Positions 29,847 to 34,522 of a stretch of DNA of 64,000 nt are shown one piece after another (position 1 is the first letter of the stretch; the number at the start of each line of letters is the position of its first letter). The DNA comes from Escherichia coli (GTDB lineage Bacteria; Pseudomonadota; Gammaproteobacteria; Enterobacterales; Enterobacteriaceae). The notes beneath the pieces are model-generated. The model was not told where the DNA came from and did not search any database. It was given only the letters and a program-made list of their open reading frames with translations. The position numbers and the translations under genes were made by a program. The stretch is from assembly GCF_003334315.1 (NCBI RefSeq), contig NZ_QOWR01000004.1. One strand, given 5' to 3'.

Positions 29847-30845
<999 letters not shown>

Positions 30846-30861
30846 TTTCTTGCGTTATTTT

Positions 30862-30889
30862 CGGCACCTTTTATGTAGCGAAGGTGCCG
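30862..30889 (+). terminator. Putative terminator after cysB
   Basis: Inverted repeat cggcacctt / aaggtgccg with 10-nt loop; weak T-tract after. Confidence 0.5.
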
Positions 30890-31175
30890 GAATATATTCT
30901 CTTTTGTTACTTATTTGTATACCGTGCACAATATTTTTATCCCTCATATTTATAGGGTAAATTACCTGTAAAGTAGTGTCTAATTACCCGCCTCGCAAAT
31001 TCCAGTTTTCAAATATCTATTTCAGGTCAAAAGATTGAATTATTCACTGGAGACGATTCGTAAATTCGCTGGATTTTTGACTAAAGTTTCTTTAGGATTT
31101 GTCTCATCGTATGATTAATTACACCAATCGTTCAACGTCTTGCTGATAAGTGATGGCGATTATATGAGGTTAGCA

Positions 31176-31304
31176 ATGCCTTCTGGAAATCAGGAACCCC
31201 GCCGCGATCCTGAATTAAAACGTAAAGCCTGGCTGGCGGTTTTTCTTGGTTCTGCACTTTTCTGGGTGGTTGTCGCACTGCTGATTTGGAAAGTGTGGGG
31301 ATAA
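31176..31304 (+). CDS. ymiA: Small membrane protein YmiA (42 aa)
   Basis: ATG at 31176 to TAA at 31302-31304; product MPSGNQEPRRDPELKRKAWLAVFLGSALFWVVVALLIWKVWG has a single TM helix; below the 60-aa cutoff of the supplied track. Confidence 0.6.
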   Translation: MPSGNQEPRRDPELKRKAWLAVFLGSALFWVVVALLIWKVWG

Positions 31305-31306
31305 CT

Positions 31307-31474
31307 ATGGTCGGTCAGGAGCAACTGGAGTCGTCACCATTATGCCAGCATAGTGACAATGAAACAGAAACGAAACGGGAATGTTCCGTCGTTATTCCAG
31401 ACGACTGGCAACTAACATCGCAGCAGCAAGCCTTTATAGAACTGTTTGCTGAAGATGATCAGCCGAAACAATAA
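31307..31474 (+). CDS. yciX: Small protein YciX (55 aa)
   Basis: ATG at 31307, 2 nt after the ymiA stop; product MVGQEQLESSPLCQHSDNETETKRECSVVIPDDWQL...; supplied ORF 31286..31474 uses an upstream TTG. Confidence 0.6.
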   Translation: MVGQEQLESSPLCQHSDNETETKRECSVVIPDDWQLTSQQQAFIELFAEDDQPKQ

Positions 31475-31846
31475 TTATCATCATTCTTATTACCCATTTT
31501 TAATGAATTACAGGGCTTTTAATACACCGCAGCAATAACAGGTTGAGTTATCTCAACACAAAGTAATAACCGTTAAGGGTGTAGCCTATGATCAACACAA
31601 ATATGAAATATTGGTCCTGGATGGGCGCGTTTTCTCTGTCGATGCTCTTCTGGGCCGAACTCCTCTGGATCATTACTCACTGATCCCTGACCCCGTTGCG
31701 GCGGGGTTTTCATTTGCTTTGCCACAAGGTTTCTCCTCTTTTATCAATTTGGGTTGTTATCAAATCGTTACGCGATGTTTGTGTTATCTTTAATATTCAC
31801 CCTGAAGAGAATCAGGGCTTCGCAACCCTGTCATTAAGGAGGAGCT

Positions 31847-34522
31847 ATGTCGTCAACCCTACGAGAAGCCAGTAAGGACGCGTTGCAGGCCAAAGATAAA
31901 ACTTACCACTACTACAGCCTGCCGCTTGCTGCCAAATCACTGGGCGATATCACCCGTCTACCCAAGTCACTCAAAGTTTTGCTCGAAAACCTGCTGCGCT
32001 GGCAGGATGGTAACTCGGTTACCGAAGAGGATATCCACGCGCTGGCGGGATGGCTGAAAAATGCCCATGCTGACCGTGAAATTGCCTACCGCCCGGCAAG
32101 GGTGCTGATGCAGGACTTTACCGGCGTACCTGCCGTTGTTGATCTGGCGGCAATGCGCGAAGCGGTTAAACGCCTCGGCGGCGATACTGCAAAGGTTAAT
32201 CCGCTCTCACCGGTCGACCTGGTCATTGACCACTCGGTGACTGTCGATCGTTTTGGTGATGATGAGGCATTTGAAGAAAACGTACGCCTGGAAATGGAGC
32301 GCAACCACGAACGTTATGTGTTCCTGAAATGGGGAAAGCAGGCGTTCAGTCGGTTTAGCGTCGTGCCGCCAGGCACAGGCATTTGCCATCAGGTTAACCT
32401 CGAATATCTCGGCAAAGCAGTGTGGAGCGAATTGCAGGACGGTGAATGGATTGCTTATCCGGATACACTCGTTGGTACTGACTCGCACACCACCATGATC
32501 AACGGCCTTGGCGTGCTGGGGTGGGGCGTTGGTGGCATCGAAGCAGAAGCCGCAATGTTAGGCCAGCCGGTTTCCATGCTTATCCCGGACGTAGTGGGCT
32601 TCAAACTTACCGGAAAATTACGTGAAGGTATTACCGCCACAGACCTGGTTCTCACTGTTACCCAAATGCTGCGCAAACATGGCGTGGTGGGGAAATTCGT
32701 CGAATTTTATGGTGATGGTCTGGATTCACTACCGTTGGCGGATCGCGCCACCATTGCCAATATGTCGCCAGAATATGGTGCCACCTGTGGCTTCTTCCCA
32801 ATCGATGCTGTAACCCTCGATTACATGCGTTTAAGCGGGCGCAGCGAAGATCAGGTCGAGTTGGTCGAAAAATATGCCAAAGCGCAGGGCATGTGGCGTA
32901 ACCCGGGCGATGAACCGATTTTTACCAGTACGTTAGAACTGGATATGAATGACGTTGAAGCGAGCCTGGCAGGGCCAAAACGCCCACAGGATCGCGTTGC
33001 ACTGCCCGATGTACCAAAAGCATTTGCCGCCAGTAACGAACTGGAAGTGAATGCCACGCATAAAGATCGCCAGCCGGTCGATTATGTTATGAACGGACAT
33101 CAGTATCAGTTACCTGATGGCGCTGTGGTCATTGCTGCGATAACCTCGTGCACCAACACCTCTAACCCAAGTGTGCTGATGGCCGCAGGCTTGCTGGCGA
33201 AAAAAGCCGTAACTCTGGGCCTCAAGCGGCAACCATGGGTCAAAGCGTCGCTGGCACCGGGTTCGAAAGTCGTTTCTGATTATCTGGCAAAAGCGAAACT
33301 GACACCGTATCTCGACGAACTGGGGTTTAACCTTGTGGGATACGGTTGTACCACCTGTATTGGTAACTCTGGGCCGCTGCCCGATCCTATCGAAACGGCA
33401 ATCAAAAAAGGCGATTTAACCGTCGGTGCGGTGCTGTCCGGCAACCGTAACTTTGAAGGCCGTATCCATCCGCTGGTTAAAACTAACTGGCTGGCCTCGC
33501 CGCCGCTGGTGGTTGCCTATGCGCTGGCGGGAAATATGAATATCAACCTGGCTTCTGAGCCTATCGGCCATGATCGCAAAGGCGATCCGGTTTATCTGAA
33601 AGATATCTGGCCATCGGCACAAGAAATTGCCCGTGCGGTAGAACAAGTCTCCACAGAAATGTTCCGCAAAGAGTACGCAGAAGTTTTTGAAGGCACAGCA
33701 GAGTGGAAGGGAATTCACGTCACACGATCCGATACCTACGGTTGGCAGGAGGACTCAACCTATATTCGCTTATCGCCTTTCTTTGATGAAATGCAGGCAA
33801 CACCAGCACCAGTGGAAGATATTCACGGTGCGCGGATCCTCGCAATGCTGGGGGATTCAGTCACCACTGACCATATCTCTCCGGCGGGCAGTATTAAGCC
33901 CGACAGCCCAGCGGGTCGATATCTACAAGGTCGGGGTGTTGAGCGAAAAGACTTTAACTCCTACGGTTCGCGGCGTGGTAACCATGAAGTGATGATGCGC
34001 GGCACCTTCGCCAATATTCGCATCCGTAATGAAATGGTGCCTGGCGTTGAAGGGGGGATGACGCGGCATTTACCTTACAGCGACGTAGTCTCTATTTATG
34101 ATGCTGCGATGCGCTATAAGCAGGAGCAAACGCCGCTGGCGGTGATTGCCGGGAAAGAGTATGGATCAGGCTCCAGTCGTGACTGGGCGGCAAAAGGTCC
34201 GCGTCTGCTTGGTATTCGTGTGGTGATTGCCGAATCGTTTGAACGAATTCACCGTTCGAATTTAATTGGCATGGGCATCCTGCCGCTGGAATTTCCGCAA
34301 GGCGTAACGCGTAAAACGTTAGGGCTAACCGGGGAAGAGAAGATTGATATTGGCGATCTGCAAAACCTACAACCCGGCGCGACGGTTTCGGTGACGCTTA
34401 CGCGCGCGGATGGTAGCCAGGAAGTCGTACCCTGCCGTTGTCGTATCGACACCGCGACGGAGTTGACCTACTACCAGAACGACGGCATTTTGCATTATGT
34501 CATTCGTAATATGTTGAAGTAA
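31847..34522 (+). CDS. acnA: Aconitate hydratase A
   Basis: 891-aa [32 protein letters not shown]...; aconitase Fe-S ligand regions ([16 protein letters not shown]); matches recalled AcnA. Confidence 0.97.

Follow-up and report, generated by a model that had tools for sequence, protein, structure and literature searches.

The ymiA-yciX(-ymiC) operon of Escherichia coli: conserved small-protein genes and a conserved ymiA/yciX junction compatible with translational coupling

The stretch of DNA analysed in this study (64,000 nucleotides, in the following referred to as the window) contains the ymiA-yciX(-ymiC) operon of E. coli, a locus which is already known, annotated and partly characterised, so that the significance of its detection is modest. 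The genes ymiA, yciX and ymiC are genuine coding genes, and ymiA and yciX are under purifying selection. The best overall explanation, in which we place considerable confidence, is that yciX is expressed in a coupled manner within this known operon and that YmiA and YciX act as a pair. We infer the coupling, the physical partnership of both peptides and the target of the pair. The features of the locus are listed below.

30994..31142, plus strand: conserved upstream region of the operon, from alignments of 80 and 28 loci
31143..31175, plus strand: leader or alternative 5' extension of ymiA, 33 nt, consensus ATGATAAGTGATGTCGATTGTATGAGGTTAGCA
31164..31304, plus strand: ymiA in the form supported by experiments, 46 aa (MRLAMPSGNQ...WKVWG)
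ATG at 31176, TAA at 31302-31304, plus strand: 42-codon frame of ymiA, product MPSGNQEPRRDPELKRKAWLAVFLGSALFWVVVALLIWKVWG, read directly in the sequence
31297..31309, plus strand: ymiA/yciX junction, composed of GGGG (within TGG GGA), A, TAA, 'ct' and ATG
31307..31474, plus strand: yciX coding sequence, 55 aa (MVGQEQ...DDQPKQ), from the ORF listing and RefSeq
31515..31717, plus strand: 3' segment of the operon, matching Rfam STnc180, with ymiC and a terminator-like hairpin inside
31588-31683, plus strand: ymiC, encoding a small membrane protein of 31 aa
31689-31708, plus strand: intrinsic-terminator-like hairpin after ymiC, from the terminator scan

The pair is surrounded by the large open reading frames topA, cysB (end at 30845), acnA (start at 31847), ribA and pgpB, and the gene order in the window is topA-cysB-ymiA-yciX-ymiC-acnA; the position upstream of acnA, which the original prediction had given, is thus correct. 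The same applies to the names ymiA and yciX. RefSeq annotates ymiA (46 aa), yciX (55 aa) and ymiC (31 aa) between cysB and acnA in a K-12-like strain, and the three proteins encoded in the window are each 100% identical to the proteins of this strain, with 99.2% identity of the DNA across 1 kb. YmiA matched the NCBIfam model NF000536 with 96.8 bits (E = 4e-28, cut-off 30) over residues 5-46 of the 46-aa protein, which correspond to the 42-aa form, and YmiA homologues carry the Pfam domain PF22868 (YmiA-like). YmiC matched NF041484 with 66.3 bits (cut-off 42). For YciX, no family model exists in Pfam or NCBIfam, and the gene was called by the identity of its product to the named E. coli protein and by its position directly 3' of ymiA. 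A megablast search with positions 30846-31846 yielded matches in 5422 of 5426 complete E. coli genomes (query coverage of at least 80% in 5383), and the features annotated beneath the match were ymiA, yciX and ymiC.

The genes ymiA and yciX are co-transcribed. In previous work based on reporter fusions and RNA-seq, ymiA-yciX-ymiC was treated as one operon, whose induction by low Mg2+ depends on PhoQ (PMC11429745), and dRNA-seq data cited in another paper also give an operon. PhoQ-dependent reporter activity was obtained with the region upstream of ymiA, but not with the one directly in front of ymiC (PMC11429745). It was reported that ymiC lies on the 3'UTR of yciX and lacks a promoter of its own, and YmiC was confirmed by epitope tagging. 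The terminator scan revealed no terminator-like site between ymiA and yciX, which are both located on the plus strand. A single mRNA would extend from the cysB-ymiA intergenic region to the hairpin after ymiC. The Rfam family STnc180 (RF02079) matched positions 31515-31717 with 200.8 bits, covering ymiC and this hairpin. Because the matched RNA holds the validated ymiC reading frame and the terminator, STnc180 is at least partly mRNA or 3'UTR; it resembles a coding portion at the 3' end of the ymiA-yciX mRNA more than an sRNA that is entirely non-coding. With regard to further regulation, yciX is included in a list of the Cpx regulon of Salmonella, and its expression in E. coli drops strongly upon treatment with a LolCDE inhibitor. 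For ymiA, YjjQ has been listed as regulator.

The upstream region was searched for a PhoP box of the form (T/G)GTTTA-N5-(T/G)GTTTA at the -35 position or close to it. No canonical box with up to two mismatches was found upstream of ymiA; only matches with three mismatches occur there, at 31078-31094 and 31089-31105, and the window contains many matches of this quality (182 vs about 135 expected). Since a canonical PhoP box is missing upstream, the PhoQ dependence of the operon may be indirect. A PhoP-box-like direct repeat with two mismatches, TGTTTGTGTTATCTTTA, occurs at 31776-31792, 55-71 nt upstream of the start codon of acnA. On the minus strand opposite the 3' half of yciX (31369-31503), the consensus scan gave a promoter-like sequence (TTAAAA-18-GATAAT, 31503-31474) and terminator-like hairpins (31390-31369), both of which are pattern matches only.

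For the analysis of conservation, 80 loci were fetched on the basis of the YmiA alignment, one genome per species and all from Enterobacteriaceae, and all of them were syntenic (cysB-ymiA-yciX-ymiC-acnA). Among 81 syntenic loci of this family, the core of ymiA showed a pN/pS ratio of 0.20 (shifted frames 1.45 and 1.69), ymiC a ratio of 0.42 (shifted frames 0.91 and 1.47) and the whole yciX a ratio of 0.50 (shifted frames 1.09 and 1.17). The low ratios in the annotated frames in comparison to the shifted frames identify all three as genuine genes. Within yciX, the constraint is distributed unevenly: the C-terminal part, from the P-x-S-W motif onward, reached 0.28 (shifted frames 1.45 and 1.91), and the N-terminal part 0.69 (shifted frames 0.90-0.96). 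Codon-level conservation had been named in the original prediction as a check, and it was found for ymiA and for the C-terminal part of yciX (shifted frames at 1.4-1.9).

This unevenness is also visible in the protein. The N-terminal half of YciX is variable and probably disordered. The conserved motif [IV]P-x-S-W-x-L-[TS]-x-x-Q-x-x-F-I-x-x-F is located in the C-terminal half, and AlphaFold2 placed a short helix across it (residues 38-48, pLDDT about 70). YciX would accordingly be described as a cytoplasmic peptide of 55 aa, mostly disordered except for the conserved C-terminal helix motif (P-x-S-W-x-L-T-x-x-Q-x-x-F-I-x-x-F). The original prediction had called the peptide acidic; this is correct for the E. 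coli protein with its net charge of -9, but the property is specific for Escherichia, as the median of the family is +2. A word-index search detected YciX only in Escherichia and Shigella, and a young gene restricted to Escherichia was therefore considered. This was overturned by more sensitive searches. Since tblastn within the syntenic loci detected YciX in 79 of 81 (32-59% identity outside Escherichia), the restriction to Escherichia is a sensitivity artefact, and an exhaustive profile search in 1.84 billion representative proteins gave 73 matches, which are clusters of proteins of about 55-60 aa. All but two of these matches were small, and none belonged to a larger domain family; remote homology searches of YciX against Pfam and PDB gave no informative match. 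YciX thus represents a family of proteins of about 55 aa with one helix motif that occurs across Enterobacteriaceae, Erwiniaceae and Serratia.

These results also bear on the question whether yciX is a functional protein gene at all. Its DNA could serve as spacer or 3'UTR for ymiC/STnc180 or the promoter of acnA, and such a role would agree with the almost neutral N-terminal half, with the missing Pfam or NCBIfam family, with the result of the word-index search and with the fact that direct protein-level evidence for YciX was not found in the accessible literature. We regard this explanation as very improbable: the ratio in the C-terminal part lies far below that of its shifted frames, the reading frame is intact in 79 of the 81 loci, the same motif occurs in Erwiniaceae and Serratia, and the 73 clusters show that the apparent restriction to Escherichia arose from limited sensitivity. 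The reading of yciX as a protein gene is therefore retained. Public databases also contain YmiA-YciX 'fusion' proteins of 87-97 aa (P0003, P0004, P0013 and P0203), which have frameshifts or deletions in the part of ymiA coding for the transmembrane helix. These entries come mostly from metagenome assemblies and are probably sequencing errors or pseudogenes.

The reading frame of ymiA can be opened at several codons. Besides ATG 31176, it also opens at ATG 31164 (46 aa) or TTG 31140 (54 aa); every form, including the longest, is below an ORF cut-off of 60 aa, as the original prediction had remarked for the 42-codon form. That prediction had described a 42-codon gene, of which the frame and the stop codon are correct, but the start codon used in E. 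coli lies 12 nt further upstream. Ribosome profiling with tetracycline-inhibited ribosomes placed the start 12 nt upstream of the annotation of 2006 (MRLAMPSGN...), and the same study cites a detected peptide, LAMPSGNQEPR (PMC4909307), which spans ATG 31176. In a second study, profiling of stalled initiation led to the statement that translation of ymiA 'likely initiates with MRLAMP' (Weaver 2019 preprint, 10.1101/511675). Because of these two initiation-profiling studies and the peptide, 31164 is taken as the start in E. coli. The 42-codon start corresponds to the old GenBank annotation of 2006 (PMC4909307), and RefSeq now lists 46 aa. YmiA has 46 aa in E. coli, with a core of 42 aa kept everywhere.

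YmiA is expressed and located in the membrane. Targeted PRM-MS gave about 1000-3000 copies of the 46-aa protein per cell, and GFP-YmiA, like GFP-YmiC, was found at the membrane (PMC11429745). The N-terminus of the protein is short and basic, with KRK in front of a single C-terminal transmembrane helix; R16, K17, A18 and W19, from the basic K-R-K-A-W motif preceding the helix, do not vary among 24 homologues. AlphaFold2 predicted a helix at residues 16-45 with pLDDT values of 85-96, which, like the published GFP fusion, agrees with the single transmembrane segment of the original prediction; the ribosome profiling or tag data that it had suggested as a check exist in the form of published profiling, tagging and mass spectrometry data, and they support YmiA. 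YmiA would most probably be a tail-anchored peptide of the inner membrane with a cytoplasmic basic N-terminus and one C-terminal transmembrane helix. Among 108 YmiA homologues, none was from Klebsiella or Raoultella, although both genera are heavily sequenced, and YmiA may have been lost in that clade.

The start codon of YmiA varies between genera, and the 33-nt leader in front of ATG 31176 is under constraint at the nucleotide level. In-frame start candidates are located in the leader at -33 (CTG in E. coli) and -12 (ATG 31164), in addition to ATG 31176 at position 0. ATG(0) is present in 81 of 81 loci, ATG(-12) in 58 and ATG(-33) in 71, with CTG at this position in Escherichia. An invariant GAGG (31166-31169) is located six nt before ATG 31176 (anti-SD duplex -6.3 kcal/mol), and a genus-specific GGCGA lies upstream of the -12 start of Escherichia. 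Across about 80 species, the leader is nearly free of variation at each of the three codon positions, with a mean entropy of 0.29 compared with 1.21 for the corresponding interval in front of acnA in these genomes. By codon position, entropies of 0.30/0.33/0.25 were obtained for the leader (-33 to -1) vs 0.41/0.28/1.09 for the ymiA core, and pS was 0.146 vs 0.589.

Several explanations for this conservation were considered and rejected. The leader is not plain coding sequence only, as third-position wobble is missing and pS is 4-fold below that of the core. A structured RNA or riboswitch in the upstream region or leader was rejected as well: a search upstream of ymiA gave no Rfam match at E <= 1, and RNAalifold detected no conserved structure in the upstream region and the leader (-2.46 kcal/mol with 0 compensatory pairs and -6.49 kcal/mol with one). 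A conserved uORF of 11 codons (31111-31146, MINYTNRSTSC and stop), whose TGA overlaps the -33 start as ATGA in most genera, has an ATG start and a length of exactly 11 codons in only 33 of 80 loci, among them Enterobacter, Kosakonia, Salmonella and Trabulsiella. Among the 80 loci, it is missing from the other Escherichia species, Citrobacter amalonaticus, Cedecea, Buttiauxella and Atlantibacter. For an ORF of 27 codons (31035-31118), proposed as a leader peptide, the start codon is not conserved. As the YmiA proteins of Erwiniaceae and Serratia start at the position equivalent to -33, the leader is possibly coding sequence with an overlapping constraint. Since, in addition, the N-terminus (M/V)ISKDD of the Serratia proteins resembles MISDVD of Enterobacteriaceae, the long form of YmiA may be ancestral; in that case, Escherichia would have lost the ATG at -33 and shifted to -12.

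The conservation extends further upstream, where strongly conserved blocks are found within about 180 nt in front of the leader. They comprise GCAAAT, TTCAA..TATTT..GTCAAAAGATTGAAT, GTAAATTC.CTGGATTTT, CTAAAGTTTCTTTAGGATTTGTCTCA and GATTAAT, with GTCAAAAGATTGAAT located at 31027-31041, within the blocks of the cysB-ymiA intergenic region that are conserved across genera (30994-31119). A -10-like TATGAT is found at 31110-31115, and a perfect palindrome, CTAAAG-ttt-CTTTAG (31081-31095), occupies the -35 position relative to it. Both are assigned to a putative ymiA promoter. The sequence TAAAGTTT in the palindrome was also considered, by eye, as a -35 element of sigma-28, but a matching -10 element at the required spacing is missing.

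The linkage of ymiA and yciX is not confined to Enterobacteriaceae. In Erwiniaceae, the gene for a YmiA of 52 aa precedes a YciX-like ORF, with 2-3 nt between them, and a YmiC-like ORF comes next; this group, too, is located between cysB and acnA. In Serratia quinivorans (L089:2380-2674), a YmiA-like ORF, ending in ...IKRKAWLCVFIGCGVFWLAVAAVIYWLLI and a stop codon, is located 11 nt upstream of a YciX-like gene; both genes are annotated as hypothetical or not at all. This locus is unrelated to cysB-acnA, as it is flanked by genes for an ABC-F ATPase and an MFS protein and lacks ymiC. Because the Serratia pair sits at a different chromosomal site, the linkage of ymiA and yciX has survived a relocation. 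This persistence after a change of context is the strongest argument that both genes presumably function together. The linkage is older and tighter than the link to cysB-acnA, and the two genes should therefore be studied together. In some E. coli strains, for example Z1324SEC0014 (L087), IS1 is inserted between yciX and ymiC, and ymiC is thereby cut off from the operon. In E. coli MEI008 (L088), IS1 was found in place of ymiA-yciX, so that the pair is dispensable in rare isolates.

At the junction of both genes, the TAA codon of ymiA (31302-31304) is followed by 'ct' (31305-31306) and the ATG of yciX (31307), which confirms the gap of 2 nt before a 55-codon ORF given in the original prediction. 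In 79 of 81 loci, yciX starts with an ATG at a distance of -4 to +4 nt from the stop codon of ymiA; 53 loci have a gap of 2 nt, 15 a gap of 1 nt and four an ATGA-type overlap (-4). Both exceptions belong to Salmonella enterica: in subsp. diarizonae (L038), yciX is intact and begins with a GTG abutting the ymiA stop, and in subsp. arizonae (L042), it carries an internal deletion together with a premature stop codon. Because the spacing is kept while the bases of the spacer vary between loci (ct, aa, at, a or gcc), the tight arrangement is beyond chance. The last two codons of ymiA, TGG GGN, provide a GGGG, and in loci with an exchange of Gly42 to Ser they read TGGAGC, by which GGAG is preserved.

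Common transcript and strand, stop and start within a few nt, a Shine-Dalgarno-like run inside ymiA and the conservation of this arrangement were all found, as in coupled gene pairs. Translational coupling of ymiA and yciX is therefore plausible from the conserved geometry. Ribosomes that end translation of ymiA would halt 2 nt before the ATG of yciX and near the Shine-Dalgarno-like run. The gap of 2 nt and the G-rich run in the last two ymiA codons suggest termination-reinitiation or a locally enhanced initiation as the main mode of yciX translation, by which the two peptides would be made together in a fixed ratio. Local folding revealed no masking structure at the ribosome-binding region of yciX (unpaired probability of 0.42 vs 0.45 for internal controls). 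Coupling, if present, would thus act by proximity or reinitiation and not by unmasking. An experiment on the coupling of ymiA and yciX or on an interaction of YmiA and YciX was not found in the accessible literature.

Alternatively, both genes might only be co-transcribed, with yciX being translated from its own ribosome-binding site and the spacing reflecting compact packing of the operon. We consider this possible, although with clearly less than even chances. The gene has its own Shine-Dalgarno-like sequence, with which independent initiation would suffice: the conserved GGGG upstream of yciX forms an anti-SD duplex with a median of -5.4 kcal/mol vs -2.4 kcal/mol at control positions, the binding region is as accessible as the controls, and in Serratia the gap of 11 nt is accompanied by a good AGGAAA Shine-Dalgarno sequence. 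However, simple packing does not readily account for a spacing of at most 4 nt in 79 of 81 loci despite the varying spacer, nor for the four ATGA-type overlaps, and a stop-start geometry of this kind usually goes with reinitiation. At the level of sequence, the conserved pair and its junction support a coupled expression of a functional pair.

For the function of this coupled pair, it seems most likely that YmiA and YciX would act as a small membrane-anchored modulator and its cytoplasmic partner on a larger protein of the cell envelope. AlphaFold2 modelling on a synteny-paired alignment of YciX-(GGGGS)5-YmiA gave a pTM of 0.24 and no confident joint fold. A more far-reaching version, which we regard as rather doubtful, is that both peptides form an obligate two-peptide module, with YmiA as membrane anchor and YciX as cytoplasmic adaptor binding through its P-x-S-W-x-L-T-x-x-Q-x-x-F-I-x-x-F helix, in which the 33-nt leader with the three in-frame start codons (-33, -12 and 0) acts as a post-transcriptional switch of the YmiA isoform (53, 46 or 42 aa) and of the YciX level under envelope or Mg2+ stress. 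If this were true, experiments with the single gene ymiA would have missed the function. In the main functional study, YmiA alone was over-produced and YciX (55 aa) was left out due to the size limit of 50 aa (PMC11429745).

The results of that study lead to another possibility, a module similar to a toxin and its antidote, in which YmiA damages the membrane and YciX neutralises it. Over-production of YmiA without YciX caused a lag of 8-10 h and elongated cells, an effect that was lost in a start-codon mutant (PMC11429745), and the linkage of both genes even after relocation in Serratia would fit such a module. However, the same lag was caused by over-production of several other small membrane proteins, so that the toxicity is unspecific, and YmiA is already present at about 1000-3000 copies per cell during normal growth. 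Furthermore, deletion of ymiA had no phenotype (PMC11429745), the genes show a fixed core-genome synteny across genera and are not part of mobile DNA, and a comparison of YmiA, YciX and YmiC with PADLOC at E <= 1 matched no toxin, antitoxin or defence family. A toxin-antidote function is hence quite unlikely, and the modulator with its cytoplasmic partner remains the preferred explanation.

In comparison to known systems, the operon ymiA-yciX-ymiC of E. coli K-12 (b4522/b4523; WP_001300896.1, WP_001297116.1 and WP_001310756.1) has the same locus, gene order and proteins, and nothing material differs. The enterobacterial sRNA candidate STnc180 (RF02079) represents the 3' end of the same transcript, but it is located downstream of the ymiA-yciX pair. 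Like YmiA, the small proteins MgrB, MgtS, PmrR and YoaI are stress-induced, possess one transmembrane helix, are located in the membrane and affect growth or size when over-produced (PMC11429745). They have no described conserved and co-translated soluble partner like YciX, and they share no sequence relationship with YmiA. The partner of MgtS is MgtA. Partners are also known for MgrB (PhoQ) and YoaI (EnvZ) (PMC11429745), whereas YmiA has no known partner. Similar in gene arrangement are mgtS-mgtT and yriA-yriB, which are likewise pairs of small-protein genes with abutting stop and start codons on one mRNA that is PhoQ-dependent and responds to low Mg2+ (PMC11429745). Both pairs, however, consist of genes that overlap in different reading frames, in contrast to the 2-nt gap between ymiA and yciX.
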